Shown: positions 40,368 through 63,687, counted from the first letter of the stretch. The stretch: DNA of 64,000 nt from an uncultured bacterium (GCA_964387845.1 CAYLXA010000010.1:37059-101058), one strand, 5' to 3'. Made by a program: numbers and translations. Notes: generated from the sequence alone by a model not told the origin.

Positions 40368-40640
40368 GGAACACCTCTATCTTTAAATTGGTTTTCCCTG
40401 ATTCGGGAGCTGATGATCTGAATGAAAATGAAAATTTCGATTGCAGACTCTTGAGCTTTGCTTCTCACCTACTTGACATTGATCAATTTGGCAAGCGCCA
40501 TTTCGTCAGAGATAGGTTGAGCATATCATTTTGAATTATTGTGTCAACGCTTTTTTCGGTCAATTTTGAACAATATTTGGCTTGCGTGCTAATTTAGGCC
40601 GAAAGAGTCCCAAACCGCTCCCGCGGCTAAAAGCTGGAAG

Positions 40641-48422: not shown

Positions 48423-48836
48423 TCACATCCTGTACAGCATCCAATAAATCACAACGCCCGTGATAGACACATAAAGCCAGACCGGAAACGCGATTTTAGC
48501 AATTTTCACGTGCTTTTCAAACCTGCTCTTGAGTGCTTGATATAAAGATGCGATTGCAAGCGGCGGAACAAATACGGCTAAAACTGTATGCGAAATCAGA
48601 ATCGTAAAATAAACCGGCCGGATCCAGCCCTGATGCGGAAATGGTGTGCTTCCGTGATGAAAATGGTAATAAAGATAAGAAATCAGGAAAAGTGTGGACG
48701 TTACCATGGCAAAACACATGCAGAGCGCGTGTCCCGTCCATGCCCTTTGCTTGATCATGATAAAGCCCAGCACAATTAAAAGTGCACTGGTCGTATTGAG
48801 CCCTGCGTTTAATGCCGGGAGCGCCTCTAGATTCAT
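48423..48836 (-). CDS. DUF420 membrane protein (associated with cytochrome oxidase operons)
   Basis: 137 aa, 4 TM; conserved His pair YYHFHHG. Confidence 0.55.
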   Translation of the reverse strand: MNLEALPALNAGLNTTSALLIVLGFIMIKQRAWTGHALCMCFAMVTSTLFLISYLYYHFHHGSTPFPHQGWIRPVYFTILISHTVLAVFVPPLAIASLYQALKSRFEKHVKIAKIAFPVWLYVSITGVVIYWMLYRM

Positions 48837-49411
48837 AGGGATTGTGCCTCGCTAAGAAGTTCTTTCATTTTACCGGGTTCCGTACTGTCAAAAAAACCCC
48901 GGATATTGCCTTCCCGGTCAACCAGCACAAACCGGCTGCTATGCATAACAGGTTCAGCGCCCTGTTTTAAATCTTCGTCGCTTGCATCCTGAACGCCCAG
49001 CATAAATCCGCCCGAAACAAGTTCCCAGATTTTTGACTTGTCACCCGTCAGAAAAACCCAGCGGCTTTCATCTGCGCGATATTTTTTCGCATAATCCGAT
49101 AAAACTTGCGGCGTATCATAATCCGGATCCACACTGAACGATACAAACCGTACATCCGTTCCCTTCAAGTCATCCTGCAAATTCATCATCTGCCCGCTCA
49201 TTAAGGGGCACATGCCTTGGCAGCGCGTGAAAATAAAATTGGCAATCCAAACTTTGCCTGTGAGAGAGTCGGATGAAAAAACATTGCTGCTTTGATCAAT
49301 TAATTGAAAGTGCGGCGCTTTTCCGTAAAAAGATTGCCCGGATTCTGCCAAAGCAATCGACGGGCTTAAAATCGGGAAAAGCAAAAAGGATAGAATGAGA
49401 ATAAGTTTCAT
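48833..49411 (-). CDS. SCO1/SenC copper chaperone
   Basis: Thioredoxin-like fold with CxxxC (TRCQGMCP) and a downstream His. Confidence 0.75.
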   Translation of the reverse strand: MKLILILSFLLFPILSPSIALAESGQSFYGKAPHFQLIDQSSNVFSSDSLTGKVWIANFIFTRCQGMCPLMSGQMMNLQDDLKGTDVRFVSFSVDPDYDTPQVLSDYAKKYRADESRWVFLTGDKSKIWELVSGGFMLGVQDASDEDLKQGAEPVMHSSRFVLVDREGNIRGFFDSTEPGKMKELLSEAQSL

Positions 49412-49420
49412 TAGAAAAAT

Positions 49421-50329
49421 TTATTTTAAAATGGCCGCTAATGCGGAACGGATGTCGGGATATTGAAATTGAAATCCGGAAGCCTGTGTCTTTTTCGGTA
49501 AAACTTTCGCGCTTCCAAGCAGTAAAACAGACATTTCTCCAAGTAAGATTTTGAGCACAAATTCGGGAACCGGCATCAAGCACGGGCGGCTCAATACTTG
49601 CGCCAGCACCATAGAAAACGCTTTATTGGTAACCGGCTGAGGCGCCGTTCCGTTCAAAGCGCCGCTGACGCGTTCATTGGCGATTGAAAATTCAATTAAT
49701 CTCACCAGATCGTCCCGATGAATCCAGCTCATCCACTGATTGCCGGATCCGAGCCAGCCGCCTGCGAAAAATTTAAACGGCGGCAGCATTTTCTGAAGTG
49801 CCCCACCGTCTTTTCCCAGCACAATTCCGATCCTGATTTTAACCACACGAACGCCGAAATCCTGAACACGGATTGCGTGCGCTTCCCAGGCCTTGCAAGC
49901 ACCTGCTAAAAAATCGGCTCCTGAGTTTGAATCTTCACTGAGCTCCTCATTTCCGCGCTCTCCATAAATACCGATTGCGGATGCATTGACCAAAACCCGC
50001 GGCTTGCGCTTGGCCCTTTCAATTGAGTGAGCGATGGTTTTAGTGGCATTCACCCGGCTGGTCAGAATTTTTTCTTTTTGCAATTTTGACCAACGCTTCC
50101 CCACAATCGGTTCTCCGGCAAGATTGATCACCGCGTCTGAGCCGTCAATTTCACGGATAATTTGATTGTCGATATCGGGATTCCAGACAACATGGCGGAT
50201 TTTGCCGTGAATTTGGCCGGGCTTTGCGGTGCGGCGTGATAGAACAGTCAGGTCGTGCCCCTGCTTCATCAAGGAATTGACGAGAGCACGGCCTATAAAA
50301 CCGGTGGCGCCGGTAATGACGATTCTCAT
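49421..50329 (-). CDS. TIGR01777-family NAD-dependent epimerase/dehydratase (YfcH-like)
   Basis: MRIVITGATGFIGRAL Rossmann motif; 302 aa. Confidence 0.7.
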   Translation of the reverse strand: MRIVITGATGFIGRALVNSLMKQGHDLTVLSRRTAKPGQIHGKIRHVVWNPDIDNQIIREIDGSDAVINLAGEPIVGKRWSKLQKEKILTSRVNATKTIAHSIERAKRKPRVLVNASAIGIYGERGNEELSEDSNSGADFLAGACKAWEAHAIRVQDFGVRVVKIRIGIVLGKDGGALQKMLPPFKFFAGGWLGSGNQWMSWIHRDDLVRLIEFSIANERVSGALNGTAPQPVTNKAFSMVLAQVLSRPCLMPVPEFVLKILLGEMSVLLLGSAKVLPKKTQASGFQFQYPDIRSALAAILK

Positions 50330-50619
50330 TTTATGAGTGGCTGCTTATCGAAAAGAACTAGAATGGTTAAAATACAGGCGAGAAAAAGCGGAAATACAAC
50401 GATGAAGTAAATAATCAGCTTCTCAAATTTCAGATGCATATAGTAAAGTGCAACGAGCGCGGCTTTTACGATGGCGAGAAAAATTAATAAAAGCATAATT
50501 ATAATTTTCGCGACCGGCAGCTGAGCGGTAAAAATTTCAAGTATCGTTAGAATAAACAAACTCCAGAAAACCGCCGCATAATTGGGCTGCTTGTGGGCTG
50601 CTGCTTCTGTTTCGCTCAC
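50326..50619 (-). CDS. cytochrome c oxidase subunit IV (small subunit)
   Basis: 97 aa with 3 TM helices, directly downstream of subunit III. Confidence 0.55.
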   Translation of the reverse strand: MSETEAAAHKQPNYAAVFWSLFILTILEIFTAQLPVAKIIIMLLLIFLAIVKAALVALYYMHLKFEKLIIYFIVVFPLFLACILTILVLFDKQPLIK

Positions 50620-50630
50620 TTTTTCTCTCC

Positions 50631-51221
50631 TTACACCAAATACAAAATGGTAAACAAAATAATCCAGACCAAATCAACAAAATGCCAGTAAAGGCCGGCG
50701 AGTTCCACGCCTGCGTACTCTTCCGGCGTATATTTTCCGTATAAACTTTTAATAAAAATAACGGCCAGCCAAACAACGCCTGCAAAAACGTGCGCGCCGT
50801 GAAAACCGGTCAGCGTAAAGAAACAGGATCCGAAAATGCTGGATGAAATCGTAAATTCTTTATGATGAATGAGTTCCTGGTATTCGTGATACTGAATCGC
50901 CAAAAAGAGTGACCCAAGAAGAACCGTCAGAAAAAGCCCGACATGGAGACCTTCTTTATAACCACGCTGAATGCTCGCAAGCCCCATCACGAGCGTCATG
51001 CTGCTGCAAATCAAGATAAACGTATTAAAACCGGTTAACGGAATATTAAGAACTGTAGCAGGATCCGGCCATGAGGCCATATTCTGAAACCGGAGCACGA
51101 TATAAGCACCGATAAGCCCCGTGAAAAACATGATTTCGGAAGCCAGAAACAGCCAAATGGCGAACTTGCGCGAATCGACGCCGATTCCGCCCGTGTGTGA
51201 AGGTGTGTGGGTCTGTTCCAT
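50631..51221 (-). CDS. coxC: cytochrome c oxidase subunit III
   Basis: HVVDVVWLF-like and GFHGAHV motifs; 196 aa. Confidence 0.8.
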   Translation of the reverse strand: MEQTHTPSHTGGIGVDSRKFAIWLFLASEIMFFTGLIGAYIVLRFQNMASWPDPATVLNIPLTGFNTFILICSSMTLVMGLASIQRGYKEGLHVGLFLTVLLGSLFLAIQYHEYQELIHHKEFTISSSIFGSCFFTLTGFHGAHVFAGVVWLAVIFIKSLYGKYTPEEYAGVELAGLYWHFVDLVWIILFTILYLV

Positions 51222-51222
51222 A

Positions 51223-52128
51223 TTAAAATCCGGTTCCTTTATCGCCTACCATTAAAATAAAAACAAGTGTCAAATACGCGACCGATGCGCGCAGGACGTA
51301 ACGCGCGCGCTCATCCAGATTCGGAAGCGCGTAAATAATCACAGCCGCAAAACAAATCCCGAGCAAAAAGACACCGAAAAAGTAAACGCTGCCCGTCATT
51401 CCGAAAATAGTCGGCAAGAGGCTTACGCATAAAAGCGCGCTCATATTAAGCACCATTTGCCGGCCCACTATTTTACCGTCCGGGTCCAAAACCGCAAGTG
51501 TCGGAAATCCGGCGCGCGCATAATCGGCTTTGTACATCCAGTCGATCGCAAGAAAGTGCGGGACCTGCCAGAAGAAAATAATTAAAAAAAGCGACAATGC
51601 TTGGATGTTGAACTCCCCGCCTGCGGCCGACCAACCGATTAAAGGCGGCAGCGCTCCTGGAATCGCACCCGCGAAAGTCGCAAGTGACGTCCGTTTTTTA
51701 AGCGGTGTATAGACCAACAAATAACTAAGCGACGTCAGCGCCGCAAAAACCGCGCTTTGCGGATTAACGGAGAAAAAAAGATAGGCAATTCCGGCAAAAG
51801 TTGCCGTCAATCCGAAAATGAGGCCCTGGACGGGCATGAGCCTGCCGGCTGCAACCGGCCGGTTCCGGGTCCGGATCATTTTTGCATCCGCTTCGTGTTC
51901 CATCACTTGATTGAGTGCCATCGCACCCGCTCCGACAAACGCCGTTGCTAAAATAACGCCAAAATACGAAAGAAACGAAATATTTCTTGCGGCCAAATAA
52001 AACCCAACGGATGCGCTGAGCAAGACAAGCGATAAAAGCCTGGGCTTCGCAAGCTCTAGATAATCCTGAATCGTTCCGGAGCGCAAAAATGCCTTCGGCA
52101 ACGCGACAGATTCTGAATGGTGGTTCAT
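51223..52128 (-). CDS. ctaB: protoheme IX farnesyltransferase (heme O synthase)
   Basis: RTRNRP and YTPLKKRT motifs. Confidence 0.85.
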   Translation of the reverse strand: MNHHSESVALPKAFLRSGTIQDYLELAKPRLLSLVLLSASVGFYLAARNISFLSYFGVILATAFVGAGAMALNQVMEHEADAKMIRTRNRPVAAGRLMPVQGLIFGLTATFAGIAYLFFSVNPQSAVFAALTSLSYLLVYTPLKKRTSLATFAGAIPGALPPLIGWSAAGGEFNIQALSLFLIIFFWQVPHFLAIDWMYKADYARAGFPTLAVLDPDGKIVGRQMVLNMSALLCVSLLPTIFGMTGSVYFFGVFLLGICFAAVIIYALPNLDERARYVLRASVAYLTLVFILMVGDKGTGF

Positions 52129-52991
52129 GCGATATTTGCCTTCTGGAATTTATAAATCCGGAGCACCAAAAATACGCCCGTTCCAAGCAGTAAAGCGCCG
52201 AGCGTTTGGTGGCTCGTTACGAAAAACAGGCGGCCAAACGAAGGCTGAATGGTTTCCGGTAAAATCATCGTGTAAATAAAAGAACCCATGCCGAGTGAAA
52301 TTTGAATCAAAGAAATTAATCCGAGAAAAACCGCCGGATAAATCAGCTTTTTCTCTGAAAAGTTCCTGAGCGCATATGCCGCAAGCGCTACCACATGAAA
52401 AATGACCAAAAATGCGCCCGCAATATGCGGAACCAATACAATTCGATGATCGGTATGGCGCACTGTCGCTCCCAAAATCAATTGCAGATAAATAAGAGCA
52501 ATGGTCAGCAGTGCTAATTTTTTAAAAACGGGCAGTTCAGACAAACTTCCCGAAAATTCATTTGACCATTCTTTGGAATAAAAATAAGCGATGGCGATCA
52601 CCGTTGCAAAAAAAGTTTGCGCGAGGCACGCGTGTAAAATAGAAATCGGCGCAGGAAGCAAAAACATAACCGTAAGGCCTCCCAAAATTCCCTGAGCAAC
52701 CACCATACCGAGCGCGGCAATTCCAAGGTGCCTGAGCCAGCGCCGCTTTTCGGTGATTCCGCACCAAATCGTAAAAACAAGCGTCATAAAACCGACTAGG
52801 CTTGCAATCATCCGATGGCCATGCTCGTAAAATATACCGCCCACCATCGGCGGCATCCATTGTCCGTAAGAGAGCGGCCAATCCGGAACCGCGAGGCCGG
52901 AGCCGGTGCTCGTCACCATTCCGCCTGCGATGATCAGGAAAAATGTCACGGCTGCCAATAATTTTGTATATCTCGCCAACCAAATATTCAT
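52125..52991 (-). CDS. ctaA: heme A synthase (COX15/CtaA)
   Basis: Track ORF 52125..53150 trimmed to the ATG at 52991 (MNIWLARYTKLL), which follows the coxA stop; SGLAVPDWPLSYG motif. Confidence 0.65.
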   Translation of the reverse strand: MNIWLARYTKLLAAVTFFLIIAGGMVTSTGSGLAVPDWPLSYGQWMPPMVGGIFYEHGHRMIASLVGFMTLVFTIWCGITEKRRWLRHLGIAALGMVVAQGILGGLTVMFLLPAPISILHACLAQTFFATVIAIAYFYSKEWSNEFSGSLSELPVFKKLALLTIALIYLQLILGATVRHTDHRIVLVPHIAGAFLVIFHVVALAAYALRNFSEKKLIYPAVFLGLISLIQISLGMGSFIYTMILPETIQPSFGRLFFVTSHQTLGALLLGTGVFLVLRIYKFQKANIA

Positions 52992-52992
52992 A

Positions 52993-54675
52993 CTAATTCG
53001 GGTCTGCCTGTGCGTGCCAATCTTTTGAGCGGCCGGGTTCGCTGTATTCATAAGGGCCGCGGTAAACCGTCGGAACCTTCTCAAAATTACCGTGCGGCGG
53101 CGGCGAAGGCGCTGTCCACTCGAGCGTATTGGCTTCCCACGGATTTGCATCGACTTTCTCGCCCCAAAATAAACTTTTGATTAAATTCACGAGCATGACG
53201 ATTTGGGAAACGCCGAGTAAAAACGCGCTGATCGTAATAAACACATTAATCGGCTGCATGTGCTGGATGTGCACATACTGCATCGGATCATAAATCCGGC
53301 GCATGTGGCCGCCGACACCCAAAATATGCATCGGAAAAAATGTGCAGTTGAAGAAAATAAACGTCAAAGCAAAATGAATTTTCCCGAGTTTTTCACTCAT
53401 CCTGCGGCCGAACATTTTCGGAAACCAATAATAAATTCCGGCAAACGCGGCAAACATGCTGCCGCCGAATAAAACATAGTGGATGTGGCCAACGATAAAG
53501 TAAGTGTCGTGAATGAACATATCGACCGCGGTGGACGCCATAAAAATGCCGCTCAAGCCGCCGATCACGAACATCGAAACAAACGCGATCGCATTCAGCA
53601 TTGGGGTCGTAAACCGGAGCGTCCCCCGCCACATCGTCCCGAGCCAGTTAAACGTTTTAATCGCCGACGGAACCGCAATTAACATCGTTGAAAGCATAAA
53701 CGTAGTCCCGATTGCCGGATTCATGCCGCTTTGAAACATGTGATGGCCCCACACGATAAATCCCAAAAACGCGATTGCCGTAATCGCATACACCATCGCT
53801 TTATAACCAAATATTGGTTTCCTGGAAAATGTCGACAGTACGTCCGATACAATTCCCATTCCCGGCAAAATCATGATGTACACCGCCGGATGCGAATAAA
53901 ACCAGAACAAATGCTGCCATAAAATCGCATTCCCACCGCCCTCTGAGAGGAAAAAGTGCGTACCCATGGTGCGGTCAAAAAGAAGCATGATCATTGCAGC
54001 CGTCAAAACCGGCGTTGCGAGAAGCGATAAAATCGAGGTGATAAAAATTGCCCAAGTCGTCAAAGGCATCCTAAAAAGTGTCATGCCAGGTGCGCGCATG
54101 TTAAGGATCGTCGTGATGTAATTCAGAGCGCCCATGATCGAAGACGTTCCGACTAAAATGACGCCGATGATCCAATAAGTTTGGCCGGAAGGTTCAATCG
54201 CACTGAGCGGCGGATAAGCAGTCCACCCCGAAGCACCTGCGCCTCCGGGAACAAAAAATCCTGCGAGCACCACAAAAGGCGCCGGCAAGAAAAACCAGTA
54301 AGAAAGCATGTTGAGGCGCGGAAACGCCATGTCGGGCGCCCCGACTTGCAGAGGAACCACGAAATTTCCGAAGGCGCCGACCAAAATCGGAATAATCGCG
54401 AAGAAAATCATGACGGATGCGTGAATCGTAAACAGCTGGTTATAAAATTCGGGAAGCATAATGCCGCCTACCATCATGCTATCCGGGAACCAATCTCCCA
54501 AAATCGGCATGGGTTTTCCGGGATATGCCAGCTGCCATCTTAATAGAAGCGCCAAAAGCCCGCCGACTAAAAAGAAGAAGAATGTGGTAAATAAAAACTG
54601 GATCCCGATCACTTTGTGATCGACCGAAAATACGTATTTTTTCCAAAAACTCATTTTATGCTGATCGTGACTCAT
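52993..54675 (-). CDS. coxA: cytochrome c oxidase subunit I
   Basis: 560 aa; conserved His ligands in WFFGHPEVY-like (WFYSHPAVY) and GxHHMF (WGHHMF) motifs. Confidence 0.9.
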   Translation of the reverse strand: MSHDQHKMSFWKKYVFSVDHKVIGIQFLFTTFFFFLVGGLLALLLRWQLAYPGKPMPILGDWFPDSMMVGGIMLPEFYNQLFTIHASVMIFFAIIPILVGAFGNFVVPLQVGAPDMAFPRLNMLSYWFFLPAPFVVLAGFFVPGGAGASGWTAYPPLSAIEPSGQTYWIIGVILVGTSSIMGALNYITTILNMRAPGMTLFRMPLTTWAIFITSILSLLATPVLTAAMIMLLFDRTMGTHFFLSEGGGNAILWQHLFWFYSHPAVYIMILPGMGIVSDVLSTFSRKPIFGYKAMVYAITAIAFLGFIVWGHHMFQSGMNPAIGTTFMLSTMLIAVPSAIKTFNWLGTMWRGTLRFTTPMLNAIAFVSMFVIGGLSGIFMASTAVDMFIHDTYFIVGHIHYVLFGGSMFAAFAGIYYWFPKMFGRRMSEKLGKIHFALTFIFFNCTFFPMHILGVGGHMRRIYDPMQYVHIQHMQPINVFITISAFLLGVSQIVMLVNLIKSLFWGEKVDANPWEANTLEWTAPSPPPHGNFEKVPTVYRGPYEYSEPGRSKDWHAQADPN

Positions 54676-56162
54676 ACCGCGCCTCCATGCGCTGCTTCGT
54701 TAAGCCATGCTGTAAAACCTTCCGGCGAGTGAATCGTTAAAAATCCGCGCATACGGTAATGCCCAAGTCCGCAAAACTCGGCGCAAGCGATTTCATATTT
54801 CCCCGTCCGCGTTGCCTCAAACCATACGTCAATCGCCATACCGGGCACAACGTCCTGCTTCAAACGAACTTCCGGCAAAAAGAAACTGTGCAGCACAGGA
54901 TGATTGTTGTCTTTACCGATCGATGTCAGCCGAACACGCACCGGCTTTCCGACCGGAATATGAAGTTGATTGACAGTTTTAATATCATCCGAGGTTCCGA
55001 ATTTTCCGTCAGCGCCGGGATAATTCACATTCCACGCAAATTGCTCGGCCTGAATTTCAACAGAAACAGAATCCTGCGGCGGTTCTTTTTTAAGATCCAC
55101 CCAAATTACCTGGCTCCAAATCATCAGCACCACCAAAATAATGGACGGAATAATCGTCCAAATCAGCTCCAAACGGTCGTTGCCGTGTGTATAAGTTGCC
55201 TTGGCGCCGGGCCTATCTCGGTATTTGAAAAGAAACATCACGAGTGCAATCTGCACGCCGAAAAAGACGACTCCGGTAATAACCAAGATCACATAAAATA
55301 ATTGGTCAATCTTTGCGCCGTAGGTTGAAATATTTTCCGGAAGCCACCAACCTGTTTTTGCGCGCGGAAGGTCAGTTGCGGCAGAATCGTCGTAACGCTC
55401 GATCGGTTTCGGCTCTTCAGTCGTAATTTTAAGGCCGCTTGATTCATCAACGATTTCTTTTGTACTGAACTGAAAATCAAGCTGCGCTTCGCCTGCGGCA
55501 TCCACTTTGATTTTTCCGGTCTTGGTGCCGTAAACTTCATGCCACGCCTCAATCGTATATTCACCGGCCGGGACATTTTCCAGCTTAAAACTGCCGTCAT
55601 CACCTGTAACGCTAAAAAACGGATGCTTTAAAGCGCCGACATAGGCATTCATCCACGGATGCACATCGCACTTAAATTTGATCATGACTTCGGGGTTCGA
55701 AAATGTTTTCTCGAGCTTCATGCCCTGAAGCGGCATGCCGAGATTAAATTCCGGGTTCAGCTTGCCCAATGCGTGAACGTTGTGGAGTGTTGCATCGCTA
55801 TTCAGGATGGACAATTTCTGGCCGGTCTGGATACCTTGTACGTGCGGCTCATACCAACAGCCTTTTTGATCCAAAATAACGGGCTCGGAAGGAACCGGGA
55901 ATTTTTCGTCTTTCAGGCCTTCTTTAACATAAACAAAAACATTCTTGAGGGTTCCGTTTGAATTAATTTTGACTTTTTCCGCAATAAAACCGGAAGGATG
56001 CATGGATTTGCAGACGGGATCCGCGCCCATATCGACTTTTGGGTTGTCGGGCTGCGCGCCGTCAAAATTGGCTTTTCCCGTAATGGTTCCGGCTTGTGCG
56101 ACGGAACAAAACAGGAACAAGCTTAAAAAGAAACTGGTTATTAATTTTGAATTTTTCATCAA
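54672..56162 (-). CDS. coxB: cytochrome c oxidase subunit II with an N-terminal fused amicyanin-like cupredoxin domain
   Basis: C-terminal CuA site YEIACAEFCGLGHYRMRG; N-terminal domain with H...C-D-V-H-P-W-M type-1 copper motif. Confidence 0.8.
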   Translation of the reverse strand: MMKNSKLITSFFLSLFLFCSVAQAGTITGKANFDGAQPDNPKVDMGADPVCKSMHPSGFIAEKVKINSNGTLKNVFVYVKEGLKDEKFPVPSEPVILDQKGCWYEPHVQGIQTGQKLSILNSDATLHNVHALGKLNPEFNLGMPLQGMKLEKTFSNPEVMIKFKCDVHPWMNAYVGALKHPFFSVTGDDGSFKLENVPAGEYTIEAWHEVYGTKTGKIKVDAAGEAQLDFQFSTKEIVDESSGLKITTEEPKPIERYDDSAATDLPRAKTGWWLPENISTYGAKIDQLFYVILVITGVVFFGVQIALVMFLFKYRDRPGAKATYTHGNDRLELIWTIIPSIILVVLMIWSQVIWVDLKKEPPQDSVSVEIQAEQFAWNVNYPGADGKFGTSDDIKTVNQLHIPVGKPVRVRLTSIGKDNNHPVLHSFFLPEVRLKQDVVPGMAIDVWFEATRTGKYEIACAEFCGLGHYRMRGFLTIHSPEGFTAWLNEAAHGGAV

Positions 56163-56165
56163 ACT

Positions 56166-56861
56166 CTATGCGTTGTAAGCAAACTCGATTGAAACGGGCG
56201 CGTCATCCGCAACCGTTACTTTTTGCGTTTGCGTACCGTATTTTTCATGCCAGGCTTCAATCGTATATTCTCCCGCCGGCAAGTCTTTGATTTCGAAATT
56301 TCCGGAATCATCCGAGACGCCGAAAAACGGATGATTCAAAATACCGATAAACGCGCTCATCCAGGGATGAACGTCGCATTTTAATTTCACCATGATTTCC
56401 GGTGCTTCAAACTTTTTCTTCAGCTTCATGCCTTGAATCGGCATGCCGAGATTGAACTGTTTGCTCTTCTCCGCCATTGAATGAACATTGTGGAGCGTCG
56501 GATCGCTGTTAAGAATTTCCAAACTCTGCCCAACTTGCATACCAAAAACATGCGGATTGTACTGACATCCTTTTTGATCGATCGTCACGGTTTCAGCCGG
56601 CACCGGAAAAGTTTGCGTCCCGAGCCCCTCTTTGACATAAACAAACACGTTTTTCAAGGTTCCGTTTGAATTAACGATAACGGTTTCAGCGCGCACAGGA
56701 CCCGAGTGGGCTGCAACGCATGTCGGATCTGCCGACATTGATAAAATTTCGTTTTCAGGCGCAGTGCCCGAAAATTTGACGGATCCCGAAATGGTTCCGG
56801 CAAAAACGCTCACAGGAAATAAGCAAATGGATAGAACTAAAATGATTGTCTTCATAATCAA
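56166..56861 (-). CDS. stand-alone amicyanin-like cupredoxin (paralog of the CoxB N-terminal domain)
   Basis: ~60% identity to the CoxB N-domain; KCDVHPWM (C-x2-H-x2-M) plus upstream NPHV His; signal peptide. Confidence 0.65.
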   Translation of the reverse strand: MIMKTIILVLSICLFPVSVFAGTISGSVKFSGTAPENEILSMSADPTCVAAHSGPVRAETVIVNSNGTLKNVFVYVKEGLGTQTFPVPAETVTIDQKGCQYNPHVFGMQVGQSLEILNSDPTLHNVHSMAEKSKQFNLGMPIQGMKLKKKFEAPEIMVKLKCDVHPWMSAFIGILNHPFFGVSDDSGNFEIKDLPAGEYTIEAWHEKYGTQTQKVTVADDAPVSIEFAYNA

Positions 56862-56869
56862 ACCCCTTC

Positions 56870-59677
56870 TTATTTAAACGTTTCCTTGACCTTTGCCGCT
56901 TCTTCCGGCGTAAACACTCTCAAATATTCTTTGATCGCGTGAATTTGTTTTATCGCGTCGCCATCCAGAATGTCAGTGACGGGCGTCTCACCGTCCGGGA
57001 AAAATCCGGGCATCATCGTCCCCGGCTGAATCGCTTGCGGATCTTTCAGCCAATCTTCTACCCAATTAGGCTTAAGCCGGACATGCGCCATGGTCAAATC
57101 AGGCGCTAAAAATGAAGCCGACATCCCTTGAGTTTCGCCTTGGTGACATTGAATACACTTAAATTTTATGAAAAGTTCTCTACCCGCATCAATTGTTTTT
57201 TGGGAAGGTTTTAAAGAATCATCTTTTGAAAATGAGATTCTTTGGTGCGCCAAATTGTGAAAATATTGAACAACAATATCGGTTTCCTCATCATCAAAGC
57301 CAAATGTCGGCATTCTGTATTTAAGCCACGGCCGGATCGGCGTCGGCTCTTGTAAAAATTGATAGAGCCACTCTTCCTGCACTTTGGCACCTTGGCCGTC
57401 CAAAGTCGGCGGCGCGTTACCTTTATCTTCGAAAAGAGCTTGAACGCGGCCTTCAATTCCATCCAGCGTATGGCATCCCTGGCAATTGTATTTGGCAGCC
57501 AGGAAGCGGCCTTTTTCGACGGCTTGCTCCCTCAAATCCAGCTGTTTTTGCATCTCAAGCGGAATATGCTCTTCGCGCAAGCTCAGTAAGAAAGTGACGA
57601 GTGAATTGGCTTCTTCGTCCGTAAAATCAAACTGAGGCATCCGGAGTTTTTCGCTGAAAGTTTTGATTTTGCCTTCGTCAAAACCGCGCGGATGTTTCAG
57701 TTTTTGGAAAAACCACGCTTCGCGCGTTTTTTCGATATCCACAAAACCAAAATCGAGTTTGCTGACTTCCTTTTGGCCCTGTTTCGTGAGCTCCGTTCCG
57801 ATCGGCTTCATCGTTTCAAACCCCTTGATGTCGTGACAGCCGAAACAGCCTTGCTGCAGAATCATTTCGCGGCCGACAAATTCCAATTTGTCGCTTGTGG
57901 TCATCTTAGACATTTTCTCGCGGGCTTCCGAATGGCGCATCTTGCCCGTCAAATAATCCATTGCCAATAAATCCAAATCTTTGTCCGAGGTTTCGGGCAA
58001 TGAAATCTTTTCAAACTCATGATTGCGGCTTTCAAGCAAGTAAGTCGTGATGTGAGACGCCTCTTCATCCGTCAGGCGCAAATTCGGCATCCGAGTATTT
58101 TCCATGTAATGCTTGGGATCTTTCAGCCATGTAAACAGCCAATCAGCGCTCACTTTGCTGCCCATGTTGATTAATTCGGGGCCGTGGTCATTCACGTTTG
58201 AATTGTCAACATTATGACAGCCCAAACATCCGAGATCTTTCACGAGCTGCTTGCCGACTTCAGCATTGCCTTTTTTGCGCGGCTTTTCAAGCGAGACCTC
58301 TTCCGAATGTTTCATCAAATATTCCGCAATACCTTGAATGCCGACGTTCGATTTCGCGCGGTTTTCCGGCTCCTGCATATTCTCTAAATGGAAAATCCGG
58401 GGCATCCAGGTTGACGGGCGGAAAGCTTTCGGATCCTGCAGCCATTTGGCAATCCAATCTTTCTCAAGCTTGCTTTTCACATTCAGAAGGCTTGGGCCCG
58501 CTTTCCATTGATTTTCAAATCCCTTCACCGTATGACAGCCGAAACAGCCGGCTTTCCGCGCCAAATCGCGGCCTTCGTTTAATTTGGGCGCTTCGGGGAC
58601 ATGGACAACATTGGTATGGCATTTTGTGCAGGAAGCTTCCGTATGCTGCAGCGGGAGCATTTTCTTTTCCCACTTCTCGAGTTCATGCCAATGATATTTT
58701 TTCTCCCATTCTTTCTTTTGCTCTTCATTCTGCGGCGTGTGGGCCGTTGTCGTGAAAGTGAGCGAATGCCCGTTCCCGCCATGGCAAACCGTACAGCCGA
58801 TTTTCTCAAGCGGATGCTTGGAGGATGACCCTAAAAACAAGTCGAGATTGGGATGGGTTGTGAAAGGCTGCGGTGCGTCTTCATACCCTTTCCGGTCAAT
58901 CGCCAAATGGCAGGTCGTACAGCGGTCGACTTTGTTGGCTTTTGCGAAATAAAAATCGTCATACAAATCTTCCAGCACCACCTGCTGAATTTGCAAAGAA
59001 GGTGCGATAAAATCCAGCATCGGCGCATTTAAAATCGCTTTTGCAGCGGATGGCTCGAGCTGTTCGATTTTTTTCTGAAGACGCTCGACTTCTTTTAGAA
59101 GCTGGCCTTTTTCCTTTTCATGCTGTTTTTGATCCGCTTGAAGCGCCAGGACTTTCTGATCAAGCTCCAGATCTCTCTTTTCAAGCTCTTCCTGCTCAAT
59201 TTTTGCCTTTTCGAGCCTGGGCTCTATCTCTTTTATTTTTTCTTCGTACTCATGCGCTTCTTTTTCTTCGCCTTTGTGATGATATTCTTCTTTGTAGTAC
59301 TTATAAGAATCAAAAAATTGTTTGAGGTCCTGATACCGGTTTCTGGCCTGAGTAAGCGGGAGCTGGAGCGTTTGTTTTTCTTTGAGCAGATTTTCATATT
59401 CCGCTTTTTTCTGAGCAAACGCGTCTTCGGCAGACCGCAGTTTTTGTTCAATGGCCTCAAGTTCTTTCGGATCAATTTCGGCTTTTTGTTCTTTGAGCGC
59501 TTCTTCCGCTTTTTCGCGCTCAAGCTCGATAAATTTTTCCTGATAGCGCTTCCATTCGCGGCCGTGGTCTTCAAATAACATGAGCACAAGCGTCACGGTC
59601 AGAAAAATAGAAGCAACCGCAAACCAAGCGGTTGTTTTATTGACGCTGTAGAGTTTATTTTGATGATCTTGTGGCAT
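56870..59677 (-). CDS. octaheme c-type cytochrome with N-terminal TM anchor and coiled coil
   Basis: Eight CxxCH motifs (CTTCH, CTVCH, CTKCH, CFGCH, CLGCH, CFGCH, CQGCH, CIQCH). Confidence 0.8.
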   Translation of the reverse strand: MPQDHQNKLYSVNKTTAWFAVASIFLTVTLVLMLFEDHGREWKRYQEKFIELEREKAEEALKEQKAEIDPKELEAIEQKLRSAEDAFAQKKAEYENLLKEKQTLQLPLTQARNRYQDLKQFFDSYKYYKEEYHHKGEEKEAHEYEEKIKEIEPRLEKAKIEQEELEKRDLELDQKVLALQADQKQHEKEKGQLLKEVERLQKKIEQLEPSAAKAILNAPMLDFIAPSLQIQQVVLEDLYDDFYFAKANKVDRCTTCHLAIDRKGYEDAPQPFTTHPNLDLFLGSSSKHPLEKIGCTVCHGGNGHSLTFTTTAHTPQNEEQKKEWEKKYHWHELEKWEKKMLPLQHTEASCTKCHTNVVHVPEAPKLNEGRDLARKAGCFGCHTVKGFENQWKAGPSLLNVKSKLEKDWIAKWLQDPKAFRPSTWMPRIFHLENMQEPENRAKSNVGIQGIAEYLMKHSEEVSLEKPRKKGNAEVGKQLVKDLGCLGCHNVDNSNVNDHGPELINMGSKVSADWLFTWLKDPKHYMENTRMPNLRLTDEEASHITTYLLESRNHEFEKISLPETSDKDLDLLAMDYLTGKMRHSEAREKMSKMTTSDKLEFVGREMILQQGCFGCHDIKGFETMKPIGTELTKQGQKEVSKLDFGFVDIEKTREAWFFQKLKHPRGFDEGKIKTFSEKLRMPQFDFTDEEANSLVTFLLSLREEHIPLEMQKQLDLREQAVEKGRFLAAKYNCQGCHTLDGIEGRVQALFEDKGNAPPTLDGQGAKVQEEWLYQFLQEPTPIRPWLKYRMPTFGFDDEETDIVVQYFHNLAHQRISFSKDDSLKPSQKTIDAGRELFIKFKCIQCHQGETQGMSASFLAPDLTMAHVRLKPNWVEDWLKDPQAIQPGTMMPGFFPDGETPVTDILDGDAIKQIHAIKEYLRVFTPEEAAKVKETFK

Positions 59678-59679
59678 GA

Positions 59680-60762
59680 TCAGATATTGAAGAAAAATTC
59701 AGGGATCGCGACTAGATATTTTAAGTTGAACGCCCACCGCAGATACATTTTGATCGGGACGGCGATAATCATTAATAGAAGAAACGACGCAATGGCAAAA
59801 CGGATCGGGCCCATTTCTTCATAAGCTTTTTTGCAGAACGTCATCGCGGCAACCGCAGGCGGAATCATCACGTAGCCAAACACCAGCAAAATCCCGGGCG
59901 CTTCGCGGATAAACCACTGCTCGGGCAATCTTTGGCCCATCCATTTAATGAAAATAAATTCGGATAAATTGACGTTCAGCAGCGGAACCACTTTGTGCAC
60001 ATTCCACTCTTCAAACGGCCCGAAAAAGTTCCAGTTGGGGCCGCGCAGAAATGTTCCGAGAATAATCAAAACGATCCAAAGCATCCAAAAACAAAACATG
60101 AATCCGCCGATCCATACGCGCCGCTGTTTATAGGAATAATAGCCGGAACCTTTCGGATCACGATCCAAATACGGAATCGCGCAAAGTCCGACAATGATTA
60201 AAGTCGGAATCAAAACACCGGCAATCCACGGATCAAAATAAACAAGCAGTTCCTGTAAACCCAAAAAGTACCAGGGCGCTTTTGAGGGATTCGGCGAAAT
60301 AGAAGGATTAGCAGGATCTTCGAGCGGCGCTTTCAAAAGAAGCGACCAAACAACGAGCATAATCGCATAAAAAAGCGCCACGACAAACTCGATAAAAATC
60401 AAATACGGAAAGACCAAAACTTTTTGATCGGATTCTTCTTTTTCAATCGGCGGCTTCCCTGCAGCCATGCGCTCGTCATTCAAAACGGCTTTGCGCATTG
60501 CATACCACGTAAAATAAATCATGATGAAGAACATGCCCACAATCGGCACGTTATCGGGAAGTGCAACGATGGAACGAAAATGATCATCCGAAAGCCCGAA
60601 AAAGAAAAAGACGATGCCGAAAATAGCGAGCGGAATGCAGACCTTGGGCGAGGTTAATTGTTTCGGGAAAGCCAGAAAGAAAAACAATATCGAGCTCACC
60701 AGCGTGAACAACACCACGGGCGAAGAAATAATATTAAAAAATTCTTTGATCGCTAAAACCAT
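59680..60762 (-). CDS. cytochrome bc-complex subunit IV-like protein (cytochrome b C-terminal half, extended)
   Basis: PEWY-type motif APWYFLGLQE; polytopic. Confidence 0.65.
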   Translation of the reverse strand: MVLAIKEFFNIISSPVVLFTLVSSILFFFLAFPKQLTSPKVCIPLAIFGIVFFFFGLSDDHFRSIVALPDNVPIVGMFFIMIYFTWYAMRKAVLNDERMAAGKPPIEKEESDQKVLVFPYLIFIEFVVALFYAIMLVVWSLLLKAPLEDPANPSISPNPSKAPWYFLGLQELLVYFDPWIAGVLIPTLIIVGLCAIPYLDRDPKGSGYYSYKQRRVWIGGFMFCFWMLWIVLIILGTFLRGPNWNFFGPFEEWNVHKVVPLLNVNLSEFIFIKWMGQRLPEQWFIREAPGILLVFGYVMIPPAVAAMTFCKKAYEEMGPIRFAIASFLLLMIIAVPIKMYLRWAFNLKYLVAIPEFFFNI

Positions 60763-60767
60763 AAAAA

Positions 60768-61565
60768 TTATAACGGCCCGCTAATGCCGCCGTCTTTGCG
60801 GATTCTCCAAAAATGAACGGCCATCAAAATAACGACCACAGCCGGAATCGCGACACAATGTAAAATATAAAAACGAAGCAACGCGCCGGCACCGACAAAT
60901 CGGCCCCCCAGCAATGCAAAGCGCGCGTCATTGCCCGCATGGACAAGCTGAATATCGCCTATCGCAAGAAGCGCCGCCCCGGGGCCTTCGTGGCCCAAAA
61001 ATGGGGTTGCGCGGGCCATGTTGCTGCCGACCGCGATGGCCCAAATGGCCAGCTGATCCCACGGTAACAAATATCCCGTGAAACTCAGAAGCATCGTAAG
61101 CACCAAAAGCAAAACGCCGATGACCCAATTAAATTCGCGCGGCGGTTTATAGGAGCCTGTCATGAACACGCGCAGCATATGGAGCCACACGGTAATCACC
61201 ATCGCGTGCGCGCCCCAACGGTGAAGCTCGCGCATAATGCCGAACGGCACATGCTCGCGAAGCGCAACGATGTCATTGTAAGCATATTCAACGGTCGGAC
61301 GGTAATAGAACATCAAAAGAATGCCGCTCACGACCAGTGTTAAAAATACGAAAAACGACAGGCCGCCCGCGCACCACGTAAATCCAAAACGTGCGCCGGA
61401 TTTCCGGACTTTTACGGGGTGCAAATGAAAGAAAACATTCGTCAAAACCGTCAAAGCACGGTCGCGCTCATCCGTAGAATATCCATGACGAAACATGGAC
61501 TTCCAAATTTGGCCTTTTGTGATCCATTTCTTGAATTCTTCGAAATTGAAATTAATTTTAAACAT
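60768..61565 (-). CDS. cytochrome b6-type subunit (cytochrome b N-terminal half)
   Basis: Conserved heme-ligand His pairs in helices B and D ([15 protein letters not shown]-like region). Confidence 0.75.
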
Positions 61566-61585: not shown

Positions 61586-62161
61586 CTAACAATTCAAAAA
61601 CGACTCGGGATTATTCCACTCGCCTTTTTCCTGCTGAAACTTTTTACTCTTATCCACTAAGATTTGTCCGTCATCCGCAAAGCCGATTTTAAACCGTTCA
61701 AGCGGGCGCGGCGCCGGGCCTTCGAAGTTGATTCCGGTTTTATAAAATCCGCTGCCATGGCACGGGCATTTAAATTTCTGTTCCGTATCAAGCCAGTTCG
61801 GCGTACAGCCTAAATGTGTACAAATCGTAGAAAGTGCATAAATCCCTTCTGCTGCACGGACCATCCACACGCCATACTTTTCTTTCCAGCGCTCATCGAC
61901 AATCCCGACTTCATAATCATCCGGGAATCCGGCTTTGAAACTGCTTTTCGGCTCAAAAAGAACGTTCGGAAATAAAAATCTCAGGATCAACGAAAGCGCG
62001 CCGCCCGTTGCTGCAGCAAAACCAATCCAGGCCACCACAAACCATGATAAAAATTTACGCCGGCCGGGCGATGAAACTTCTTCCAAGGGTTTTTTCGGTG
62101 CCGGAGGAGGCGTGGCCGGCAGCGGAGTTGCTGGTGTGGGAGTTGCCGGAGTTTCGCTCAT
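61586..62161 (-). CDS. Rieske [2Fe-2S] protein
   Basis: CTHLGC ... CPCHGS boxes; Pro/Ala/Thr-rich N-terminus with TM anchor. Confidence 0.85.
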   Translation of the reverse strand: MSETPATPTPATPLPATPPPAPKKPLEEVSSPGRRKFLSWFVVAWIGFAAATGGALSLILRFLFPNVLFEPKSSFKAGFPDDYEVGIVDERWKEKYGVWMVRAAEGIYALSTICTHLGCTPNWLDTEQKFKCPCHGSGFYKTGINFEGPAPRPLERFKIGFADDGQILVDKSKKFQQEKGEWNNPESFLNC

Positions 62162-63045
62162 ACAGAAACCTGCCCCGACAAATTCTGAAGCGCCGAAAGC
62201 GCAGCTTGCCTGACTTTGACACTCGGATCCGTTTTTGAAACGGTTTCAAGCAACGGACGCGAATCCGGAATATCAAGAAGCGCGACGCCTTTTGCGGCAT
62301 TCACCATCACGGTTTCGATTTTATCGCCTGCAAGGTCCGGCGTTCTTTCCAGAAAATCGCGATCGAGCATTTTAAGCAAAATTTCGGCACCTTCCGCACT
62401 GCCGAGCCGGGCCAGCGAAAGCGCTGCGTTCCACCGCACATCCATCTCGGTATCTTCCAAACGGCGCGAAAGCGTCGGAATCACCGACGGATTTTTAAGC
62501 GCGCCCAAAGCGTACGCTGCTGTTTTCCTGAGCGCAGCGTCTTCACTATCCAGAAAGGGTTTGATCACAGCCACACTGCGCGGATTCTCAAAACCGGCGA
62601 TTGACCACATAAGGAATATCGGTAGGACGGCATCCTCGTTCTGAACATCCACTTCCGCGAGCGCCTTATGAAGCGCCATCAGCGCTTCGTCCGTCTGGAA
62701 CCGGCCCACCGCCATCGCCATGTAAGCGCGCGTCTTGGCGTCATAGTGTTCTTTTTCGTTTAGGATATGCGCAGCTTCTTTTAATATACCGGTCTGACGG
62801 ATTGTGGTTTGATTGGGATTGTTCAGTTCATTCGAAAGCTCAAACGCTTTCTGCCAGCGCTTGCTCGGAGCGCCGGTTTTAATAGAGGTAATCAGGGTTT
62901 CGGGCGTTTCTTCCTCATTGGTCAGAAATACGATCGTGCACAAGAGAAGCGCCATGCCTACCGCAATTAAGAGCGGAAATATAAAAAGGCCAAAAAACAG
63001 CTTTTGCTTGGATTTTGGCTGTCCAGCGGGAGAATTGGATTCCAT
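62158..63045 (-). CDS. HEAT-repeat (PBS-lyase-like) protein with N-terminal TM anchor
   Basis: Repeated ...A..AL..LG....V..L units. Confidence 0.55.
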   Translation of the reverse strand: MESNSPAGQPKSKQKLFFGLFIFPLLIAVGMALLLCTIVFLTNEEETPETLITSIKTGAPSKRWQKAFELSNELNNPNQTTIRQTGILKEAAHILNEKEHYDAKTRAYMAMAVGRFQTDEALMALHKALAEVDVQNEDAVLPIFLMWSIAGFENPRSVAVIKPFLDSEDAALRKTAAYALGALKNPSVIPTLSRRLEDTEMDVRWNAALSLARLGSAEGAEILLKMLDRDFLERTPDLAGDKIETVMVNAAKGVALLDIPDSRPLLETVSKTDPSVKVRQAALSALQNLSGQVSV

Positions 63046-63186: not shown

Positions 63187-63687
63187 TTACTCATGAAACC
63201 CAATCCGGCGCTTTGGCTTCTCCTCTTCAGCCAGAATTTCTTCGATGGCCGAGAATACGACTTTGAATTGTTCATCGTATTTATTTTCGAGGGCTGTAAT
63301 TTTTCGTTTGAGTGAGGCGTAAGTTAAAGCTTCGCGCCGCAATTCCACAAATGCTCTCATGATTTGAATATTCACCGAGACCGCTCGCTCACTATTTAAG
63401 ACGCTGGATAACATTGCAATGCCTTGCTCCGTAAAAGCATAGGGCAGGTGCCTTCTCCCGCCCCATCTTGAGGTGCCAATTTGGCACCTCAAGATTGCAA
63501 CTTCTTTATTTGTAAGTAGATACATAAAATCGTCAGGGAATCTTTCTAAATTCCGGCGTACCTGCCGTGTCAATTGCTTTGTTTCAACCCCATACAATTC
63601 TGCCAAATCCGAATCGAGAATGACGTAGCGGCCTCGTAAATGAAAAATTCTATTCCCAATCTTATCAATATTAATCAATTCATTCAT
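63187..63687 (-). CDS. ORF6N-domain protein (KilA-N/antirepressor-like)
   Basis: N-terminal ...RGRYVILDSDLAELYGVETKQL... typical of the ORF6N family; RBS AGGGGGAAAT. Confidence 0.6.
   Translation of the reverse strand: MNELINIDKIGNRIFHLRGRYVILDSDLAELYGVETKQLTRQVRRNLERFPDDFMYLLTNKEVAILRCQIGTSRWGGRRHLPYAFTEQGIAMLSSVLNSERAVSVNIQIMRAFVELRREALTYASLKRKITALENKYDEQFKVVFSAIEEILAEEEKPKRRIGFHE

Follow-up and report, generated by a model that had tools for sequence, protein, structure and literature searches.

The window considered here, a 64,000-nucleotide stretch of DNA from an uncultured bacterium (GCA_964387845.1, CAYLXA010000010.1:37059-101058), carries on its minus strand one tightly packed string of respiratory genes, which runs from a HEAT-repeat gene through to DUF420/CtaM (63045 to 48423) and in which the intergenic gaps around the genes of interest measure 3-14 nt or give way to overlaps. 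Two adjacent genes of this string, encoding a stand-alone protein of 231 residues and a protein of 496 residues that ends in the cytochrome c oxidase subunit CoxB, share a module that is predicted here to be a type-1 (blue) copper unit. The stand-alone protein aligns with residues 13-233 of the longer protein over 221 residues without a gap (57% identity, E-value 7e-95), in good agreement with the identity of about 60% between this protein and the first 230 or so residues of CoxB that had been reported in the original prediction, a reading of the same DNA from its sequence. The two modules are paralogs, and the segment K-C-D-V-H-P-W-M noticed in that reading occurs in the checked translations of both (162-168 in the stand-alone protein, 165-171 in the fusion). 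The surrounding operon was also described correctly: a Rieske gene, a cytochrome b6-like gene and a PetD-like gene precede the modules, together with a cytochrome gene with eight CxxCH motifs.

The C-terminal half of the 496-residue protein is a genuine A-family CoxB, with two transmembrane helices, Pfam matches to COX2_TM and COX2, a TIGR02866 score of 161.4 bits against a cutoff of 147.7, and the CuA motif CAEFCGLGHYRM; the CuA residues H425, C460, C464, H468 and M471 are invariant among 62 orthologues. CxxCH is absent from the protein, which does not contain a fused class I cytochrome c domain of the caa3 type. Because the mature N-terminus of CoxB is periplasmic (signal peptide, N-out), the module and CuA lie on the same side of the membrane. 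The AlphaFold2 model of the fusion has a predicted local distance difference test score (pLDDT) of 86 and a whole-chain predicted template modelling score (pTM) of 0.56, and the low value of the latter fits a flexible tether between the two halves.

The fold of the module was examined by using an AlphaFold2 model of the 231-residue protein, built from an alignment of 83 homologs (mean pLDDT 93.8, pTM 0.88), for which Foldseek returned matches of probability 1.00 to amicyanin, pseudoazurin and plastocyanin among solved structures. The cupredoxin proposed in the original prediction was therefore recovered, but not as a plain domain: the strand order of the model places it (approximately residues 86-176) within a transthyretin-like sandwich, whose strands 22-31 and 73-78 come before it and whose remaining part, 180-230, comes after it. 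The high pTM suggests that the cupredoxin and transthyretin-like domains form one rigid body. Since the cupredoxin interrupts the sandwich domain, Pfam detects only the last 50 positions of CarboxypepD_reg (PF13620, profile positions 32-81 only) and no cupredoxin; the match scores 36.4 bits in the stand-alone protein (cutoff 32.3) and 30.7 bits, just under the cutoff, in the fusion. The cupredoxin part is recognised by neither Pfam nor NCBIfam, and the nesting also accounts for the NCBI names of family members, which are "hypothetical" or "carboxypeptidase regulatory-like"; the JGI name is "plastocyanin". Profile and fold methods were required for its detection, as a single-sequence search of the PDB reached at best an E-value of only 0.065 (to 5fc9).

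A putative copper site emerged from a profile comparison with hhalign (E-value 9e-6), in which amicyanin H53, C92, H95 and M98 fall on H124, C162, H165 and M168 of the module, the amicyanin segments "EAMPHNVHF" and "CTPHPFM" being paired with "DPTLHNVHS" and "CDVHPWM", respectively. The C-x2-H-x2-M spacing of amicyanin, as originally noted, is thus present in both copies. Conservation was analyzed in 335 aligned modules spanning about 42-100% identity, which comprised 118 close stand-alone proteins, 70 N-terminal CoxB fusions, 142 representatives of 50%-identity clusters, and 5 others, mostly from C-terminal CoxB fusions. The Cys, His and Met named from the sequence are all strongly conserved (C162 in 334, H165 in 334 and M168 in 329 homologs), as is H124 (332). 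An Asn directly after the N-terminal His ligand is a hallmark of cupredoxins, and N125, which aligns with amicyanin N54, is kept in 331 of the 335. On the other hand, one ligand had been misplaced, since the original prediction chose the His of NPHV/EPHV (H104/H107) rather than the first His of L-H-N-V-H. The former was rejected as a ligand because it aligns outside the site and is replaced by Arg in 43 homologs, including 21 of the 70 N-terminal CoxB fusions (His in 274); M140 likewise varies freely. Both the copper occupancy of the module and its redox potential are, at this stage, predictions drawn from sequence.

Besides the predicted ligands, the possibility of a second, Cys2His2 metal site made up of C48, H52, C99 and H104 was considered and rejected, as both His vary (H52 present in 257 and H104 in 274 of the 335). 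The two cysteines are near-invariant (C48 in 334, C99 in 333), which makes a disulfide more likely than a second metal site, and C48 and C99 probably form one. Several further positions, namely H177 (in HPFF), W204-H205-E206 (WHE), Q96 and the C48/C99 pair, are nearly as conserved as the ligands throughout the family, CoxB and PuuD fusions included; HPFF and WHE could belong to a second site, to the interface between the domains or to a surface used for docking. The positions of these features are given in Table 1.

Table 1. The two copies of the predicted blue-copper module, their parts, and the other genes of the respiratory string (positions counted from the first nucleotide of the window; TM, transmembrane; ORF, open reading frame; AF2, AlphaFold2)
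Feature	Position	Strand	Basis or remark
Stand-alone 231-residue two-domain blue-copper protein (predicted)	56166-56861	-	ORF, AF2 model, fold matches, >7900 homologs
Signal peptide, stand-alone (residues 1-21, ...VSVFA/G)	56799-56861	-	Hydrophobic segment 1-28; cleavage site inferred
Cupredoxin domain, stand-alone (residues ~86-176)	56334-56606	-	
H-N-V-H, stand-alone (H124 predicted ligand, then Asn)	56481-56492	-	Aligns with amicyanin H53-N54
Ligand loop C162-D-V-H165-P-W-M168, stand-alone	56358-56378	-	Aligns with amicyanin C92-T-P-H95-P-F-M98
C-terminal transthyretin-like (CarboxypepD_reg) strands, stand-alone, with HPFF and WHE motifs	56169-56333	-	
496-residue module-CoxB fusion	54672-56162	-	ORF, Pfam, TIGR02866, AF2 model
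Signal peptide, fusion (residues 1-24, ...SVAQA/G)	56091-56162	-	Hydrophobic segment 6-25
Blue-copper module (predicted), fusion (residues 25-235)	55458-56090	-	57% identity; AF2 strand pattern that of the stand-alone protein
H-N-V-H, fusion (H127 predicted ligand)	55773-55784	-	Alignments, translation
Ligand loop C165-D-V-H168-P-W-M171, fusion	55650-55670	-	C, H, M invariant in 70/70 N-terminal fusions
Linker of ~46 residues, module to TM1, part predicted disordered	55320-55457	-	pLDDT <50 at 242-245, 249-253
CoxB TM hairpin (TM1 ~282-313, TM2 ~329-357)	55092-55319	-	Pfam COX2_TM, model helices, hydropathy
CoxB periplasmic CuA domain	54675-55091	-	Pfam COX2, TIGR02866
CuA motif C-A-E-F-C-G-L-G-H-Y-R-M	54750-54785	-	Translation
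HEAT-repeat protein	62158-63045	-	First in gene string
Rieske	61586-62161	-	Quinol oxidase gene; Pfam/NCBIfam
Cytochrome b6-like	60768-61565	-	Quinol oxidase gene; Pfam/NCBIfam
PetD/subunit IV-like	59680-60762	-	Quinol oxidase gene; Pfam/NCBIfam
935-residue membrane-anchored octahaem cytochrome c	56870-59677	-	8 CxxCH, TM 14-38, Pfam and NCBIfam cytochrome c domains
CoxA	52993-54675	-	Pfam COX1, 531 bits
CtaA, CtaB, CoxC, CoxD	50326-53150	-	ORFs; nearest relatives in the same order in related loci
NAD-dependent epimerase/DUF1731 gene	49421-50329	-	Between CoxD and Sco1
Sco1/SenC copper chaperone	48833-49411	-	Oxidase assembly factor, same gene string
DUF420/CtaM	48423-48836	-	Oxidase assembly factor, same gene string

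The module belongs to a large family. More than 7900 homologs were returned by a word-indexed search, and an exhaustive profile search detected 2715 clusters (50% identity) at E<=1e-30, some of these matches covering β-sandwich repeats only. By using a motif scan of one genome per species, the module was identified in at least 597 species genomes. The groups represented among the matches listed include Omnitrophota, Planctomycetia-labelled bins, Acidobacteriota (Thermoanaerobaculia and Vicinamibacterales), Bacteroidota, Rhodothermales, Ignavibacteria, Verrucomicrobiia, Gemmatimonas, Kryptoniota, Fidelibacterota/Neomarinimicrobiota, Binatia and Myxococcales. No description of the family or of bacterial cupredoxin-CoxB fusions was found in the searchable literature, which is not proof of absence, and the module is not described in the Caldithrix and Melioribacter genome papers.

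Further analysis of gene order was based on the best 80 loci, which come from about ten phyla, a gene being counted as following the module when it lay within 500 bp on the same strand. Cox or Cta genes are present in 76 of the loci, and in 74 of them the next gene downstream of the module is an oxidase gene (CoxB in 23, CoxA in 23, CtaA in 27 and CtaB in 1). A stand-alone module beside oxidase genes is therefore widespread across phyla and not a peculiarity of this operon. In 23 of the 80 loci, the octahaem cytochrome of the Rieske/cytochrome b cluster directly precedes the module, as it does in the window. Two loci from Acidobacteria (L014 and L026) have unrelated genes upstream of the module (peptidase M23, amidohydrolase), which indicates that the module heads the oxidase operon there. 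Among 42 CoxB open reading frames linked to the module, none carries CxxCH and 40 have an intact CuA motif.

Several types of gene fusion were identified. N-terminal fusions of the module to CoxB form approximately 70 clusters (90% identity) of full-length orthologues of the Omnitrophica type, all named ones being from Candidatus Omnitrophica; such fusions are found in 5 of the 80 loci (L002, L004, L005, L006 and L012), each time immediately downstream of a stand-alone copy. A neighbour-joining tree groups the modules of these fusions with the stand-alone proteins of Omnitrophota in a single clade, so that a duplication at the root of the clade is implied. C-terminal fusions, in which a CoxB with the CuA motif is followed by an acidic linker and then the module, are rare (P0194-P0197 and P0306, about five clusters), and their modules fall elsewhere in the tree, indicating that the N- and C-terminal CoxB fusions arose independently. 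One locus with a C-terminal fusion (L082) also has a stand-alone copy directly upstream, together with a gene for a 1696-residue octahaem cytochrome and a Sco1 gene. That both fusion lineages retain a stand-alone copy upstream is a hint that the tethered copy and the free one differ in function. The original description of the module as standing in place of a cytochrome c domain is loose for the gene in the window, where the module is N-terminal, the cytochrome c of caa3 oxidases being C-terminal; only the few relatives with a C-terminal module have it in that position.

In addition to CoxB, the module is fused to CoxD (P0270; COX4_pro, prokaryotic oxidase subunit IV), occurs in tandem behind a zf-HC2 anti-sigma-like finger (P0235), and follows the PuuD membrane domain, Urate_ox_N, in P0382 and P0358. 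The gene for P0382 (L083, 5510-7171) adjoins an allantoicase/OHCU decarboxylase gene in a uricolysis cluster, and its product has no CxxCH. In canonical PuuD urate oxidases, a C-terminal cytochrome c is invariant and has been described as the electron-transfer domain (PMC4562309). The PuuD fusion is thus a naturally occurring exchange in which the module has taken the place of cytochrome c, and it points to the interchangeability of the two.

Among proteins of known structure, a close counterpart of the predicted copper site is that of amicyanin from Paracoccus denitrificans and P. versutus (1aac, 1id2), which shares with the module the C-x2-H-x2-M loop with H-P-aromatic-M and the H-N-V-H at the first His, at only about 18-24% identity. 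The module differs from amicyanin in that its cupredoxin is inserted in a transthyretin-like sandwich, in the extra near-invariant Cys pair (C48/C99), and in its genomic partner, which is a haem-copper oxidase. No methylamine dehydrogenase (mau) genes were seen among the open reading frames of the window examined (roughly 35-64 kb); given this and the oxidase linkage of 74 of the 80 loci, the module is better regarded as amicyanin-like in structure than as an amicyanin. Another case of an extra cupredoxin fused to a copper enzyme is the three-domain NirK of Thermus scotoductus (6hbe), in which it serves as an internal electron donor; unlike in the window, the host is a nitrite reductase and the fusion is C-terminal. 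The subunit II of caa3 oxidases (Thermus, Bacillus and Rhodothermus) likewise has a one-electron carrier tethered to the CuA subunit on the periplasmic side. This carrier is a C-terminal haem c, whereas the window fusion has a predicted type-1 copper at the N-terminus; in P0194-P0197 and P0306, the copper module takes the very position of the C-terminal cytochrome c of caa3.

By architecture, the closest precedent is the fusion of halocyanin to subunit IIa, the equivalent of helix I of A-type subunit II, in haloarchaeal ba3-type oxidases of Halobacterium and Haloarcula (PMC3128077). The order is the same as in the window fusion, the copper domain coming before the membrane helix. However, these oxidases are archaeal and of B type, the copper domain is joined to a separate small subunit IIa rather than to a complete CoxB with CuA, and no transthyretin-like domain has been reported; the likeness to the window fusion is an analogy of architecture. 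As the host oxidase of the window fusion is A-type and bacterial, an independent origin of the two fusions is likely.

More generally, blue-copper proteins that feed or associate with haem-copper oxidases are well established, examples being plastocyanin, auracyanin, sulfocyanin, halocyanin and AcoP, the last of which is encoded in an oxidase operon (PMC4059628, PMC10804444). As is proposed for the module, plastocyanin of cyanobacteria, auracyanin of Chloroflexus/Roseiflexus, sulfocyanin SoxE of Sulfolobus (SoxM), and AcoP and rusticyanin of Acidithiobacillus are type-1 or type-1-like proteins that link a quinol-oxidising complex to, or associate with, a haem-copper oxidase. None of them is fused to CoxB or has a transthyretin-like pedestal, and they have other loop lengths and occur in other lineages. 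These precedents, together with the haloarchaeal halocyanin-IIa fusions (PMC3128077), mean that the "unconventional" electron path of the original prediction was overstated. What sets the present case apart is the bacterial A-type oxidase, the fusion to a complete CuA subunit at either end, the nested cupredoxin, and an uncharacterised family that spans phyla.

Taken together, these observations favor the interpretation that the module is a type-1 copper electron carrier, the tethered copy providing a built-in entry to CuA and the free copy a shuttle, to which a probability of roughly 0.7 is assigned. The cupredoxin, amicyanin-like and rigidly embedded in the transthyretin-like β-sandwich, would make the module a periplasmic type-1 (blue) copper unit for electron transfer. 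In the window, quinol may be oxidised by the complex of Rieske, cytochrome b6 and subunit IV-like proteins, from which the octahaem cytochrome c anchored in the membrane would receive the electrons and probably hand them on to the copper modules; by way of CuA of CoxB and haem a they would finally reach haem a3-CuB. The free copy, a secreted 21-kDa protein, would probably be a mobile shuttle, and the tethered copy, which a flexible stretch of about 46 residues joins to CoxB at its periplasmic N-terminus, could serve as a built-in entry domain like the cytochrome c of caa3. With which partners the module interacts, which way the electrons run and how the two copies share the work are all proposed on this basis. 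An electron-entry role, as originally suggested, receives support from synteny and from four independent kinds of fusion (CoxB N-terminal, CoxB C-terminal, CoxD and PuuD), and the module probably does the usual job of cytochrome c beside oxidase genes in at least ten phyla.

Several points weigh against this interpretation. In principle, CuA could take electrons directly from the octahaem protein, through its C-terminal domains of the class I cytochrome c type, and the modules would then be dispensable. The nearest downstream gene is that of the haem A synthase CtaA in 27 of the 80 loci, which would suit an assembly role as well. The absence of haem c from the linked CoxB proteins carries little weight and is weak evidence, because many A-type oxidases are without haem c anyway. 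Moreover, HPFF, WHE and Q96 are strongly conserved outside the copper site and have no role in the model, and the binding of copper is itself predicted from alignment.

A broader version of the electron-carrier interpretation can also be considered, in which the family would be a general, unrecognised donor of A-type oxidases that have no cytochrome c domain, replacing soluble cytochrome c in Acidobacteriota, Bacteroidota/Ignavibacteria/Rhodothermales, Verrucomicrobiota, Gemmatimonadota, Omnitrophota, Planctomycetota-like bins and others. In the two fusion lineages of opposite polarity, an obligatory Cu to Cu to CuA relay might then be made up of the free copy and the tethered one. The rigid β-sandwich, a pedestal that bears the invariant HPFF and WHE motifs, might be the docking element of a bc-aa3 supercomplex, placing the copper site so that it lies between CuA and the multihaem cytochrome. 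With its parts taken jointly, this version is tentative and is judged somewhat more apt to fail than to hold.

Alternative roles of the module were also evaluated. The main one, which seems improbable, is that of an oxidase biogenesis factor, a copper chaperone or insertase for CuA/CuB resembling PCuAC or Sco, with the CoxB fusion holding the chaperone at its client. The setting of the module would suit such a role, since it is co-located with oxidase assembly and cofactor genes and, in the 27 loci where CtaA-CtaB directly follow it, the structural genes are sometimes on the other strand and a few kb away; however, dedicated Sco1 and CtaM genes are already part of the gene strings of the window and of L082. 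PCuAC is itself cupredoxin-like in fold, but the complete and buried His-Cys-His-Met type-1 set, with its amicyanin loop and His-Asn pair, resembles neither the motif of Met and His residues on the surface of PCuAC nor the CxxxC of Sco, and no PCuAC or Sco Pfam match was obtained for the module at E<=0.01, its fold being cupredoxin plus transthyretin-like. A permanent 1:1 fusion to a structural subunit would be unusual for a chaperone, and in PuuD, for which no copper centre has been described, it is the cytochrome c domain whose place the module takes (PMC4562309).

Nor do the data favor the notion that the module is a structural or adhesive β-sandwich appendage, whose cupredoxin part has degenerated into a metal-free scaffold. 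That Pfam recognises CarboxypepD_reg and nothing else, and the NCBI name "carboxypeptidase regulatory-like domain-containing protein", would agree with it, but the four ligand positions are at least 98% conserved in the 335 sequences while others, H104 and M140 among them, are free to vary. Selection of this kind would not act on a degenerate site, and this explanation is very unlikely. It is also conceivable, although rather unlikely, that the module is a genuine type-1 carrier whose main partner is not CuA, electrons either being delivered from the octahaem cytochrome to other periplasmic acceptors (NirK or NosZ, for example) or being gathered from further donors; the tethered copy would then be a site for docking or branching and not the obligatory way into CuA. 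Several small cupredoxins, among them pseudoazurin, azurin and amicyanin, interact with a range of partners, and the occurrence of the module in PuuD fusions and in tandem repeats is suggestive of a general-purpose redox module. Partial denitrification is encoded by some Omnitrophota (PMC10066038), but no nitrite or nitrous oxide reductase genes were found among the open reading frames examined in the 35-64 kb part of the window. Against a main partner other than CuA also stand the near-universal adjacency to haem-copper oxidase genes (74 of the 80 loci) and the fusions themselves, two of which arose independently on the CuA subunit itself and one on CoxD.

The other genes of the string offer additional features of interest. 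The octahaem protein has exactly eight CxxCH motifs and a single N-terminal transmembrane helix, and its gene is the sole open reading frame bearing CxxCH in the 64-kb window. A coiled coil of about 180 residues, with weak SMC/Rad50-like matches, lies between this helix and the haem domains, and the 1696-residue octahaem protein of the C-terminal fusion lineage occupies the equivalent position in L082 (1916-7006); so long a stalk is unusual for a respiratory cytochrome. The HEAT/PBS-lyase-repeat protein has an N-terminal hydrophobic segment, and its gene, which heads the Rieske/cytochrome b cluster, is kept at the cluster head in related loci (L005 12-578, L011 10-483); it could encode an assembly factor. 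Downstream of CoxA, the CtaA, CtaB, CoxC and CoxD genes of the window were named by gene order, their L082 counterparts carrying the Pfam domains COX15-CtaA, UbiA, COX3 and COX4_pro. The CtaA open reading frame as called (52125-53150) overlaps the 3' end of CoxA by about 158 nt; as homologs align only from about residue 55, this is probably an artefact of calling, with the true start at the Met of MNIWLARY. The epimerase/DUF1731 gene separates CoxD from the Sco1 and CtaM assembly genes and apparently belongs to the same gene string (48423-50329).

Outside the respiratory string, a two-partner secretion pair was observed on the minus strand at 37407-42368, consisting of a ShlB/FhaC-type transporter (40641-42368) and a 986-residue exoprotein with a two-partner secretion domain (37407-40367). 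Immediately upstream of the string, on the minus strand, is an ORF6N-domain gene (63187-63687) of the KilA-N-like kind that is associated with phages or antirepressors. With regard to the source of the DNA, the closest named homologs of the module proteins are from metagenome-assembled genomes of Candidatus Omnitrophica/Omnitrophota, and the window therefore most likely derives from an aerobic member of Omnitrophota. A survey of this phylum records no more about cytochrome c oxidase than its presence or absence (PMC10066038).

The finding is genuine and makes biological sense, and it extends known principles without introducing a new one; the original prediction was largely right in spirit, wrong on one ligand and overstated as to how unconventional the path is. 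Its immediate gain is that the missing donor of A-type oxidases in many uncultured phyla now has a candidate that can be tested. If the proposed role is correct, the N- and C-terminal CoxB fusions would be natural constructs in which the transfer of electrons from type-1 copper to CuA could be followed within one molecule. A large protein family would then supply the step so far lacking between the oxidation of quinol and the reduction of O2 in many abundant but understudied phyla of soil, sediment and groundwater, a step that metabolic reconstructions seeking a soluble cytochrome c would overlook, and respiration in the organisms that carry the module would lean more heavily on copper.

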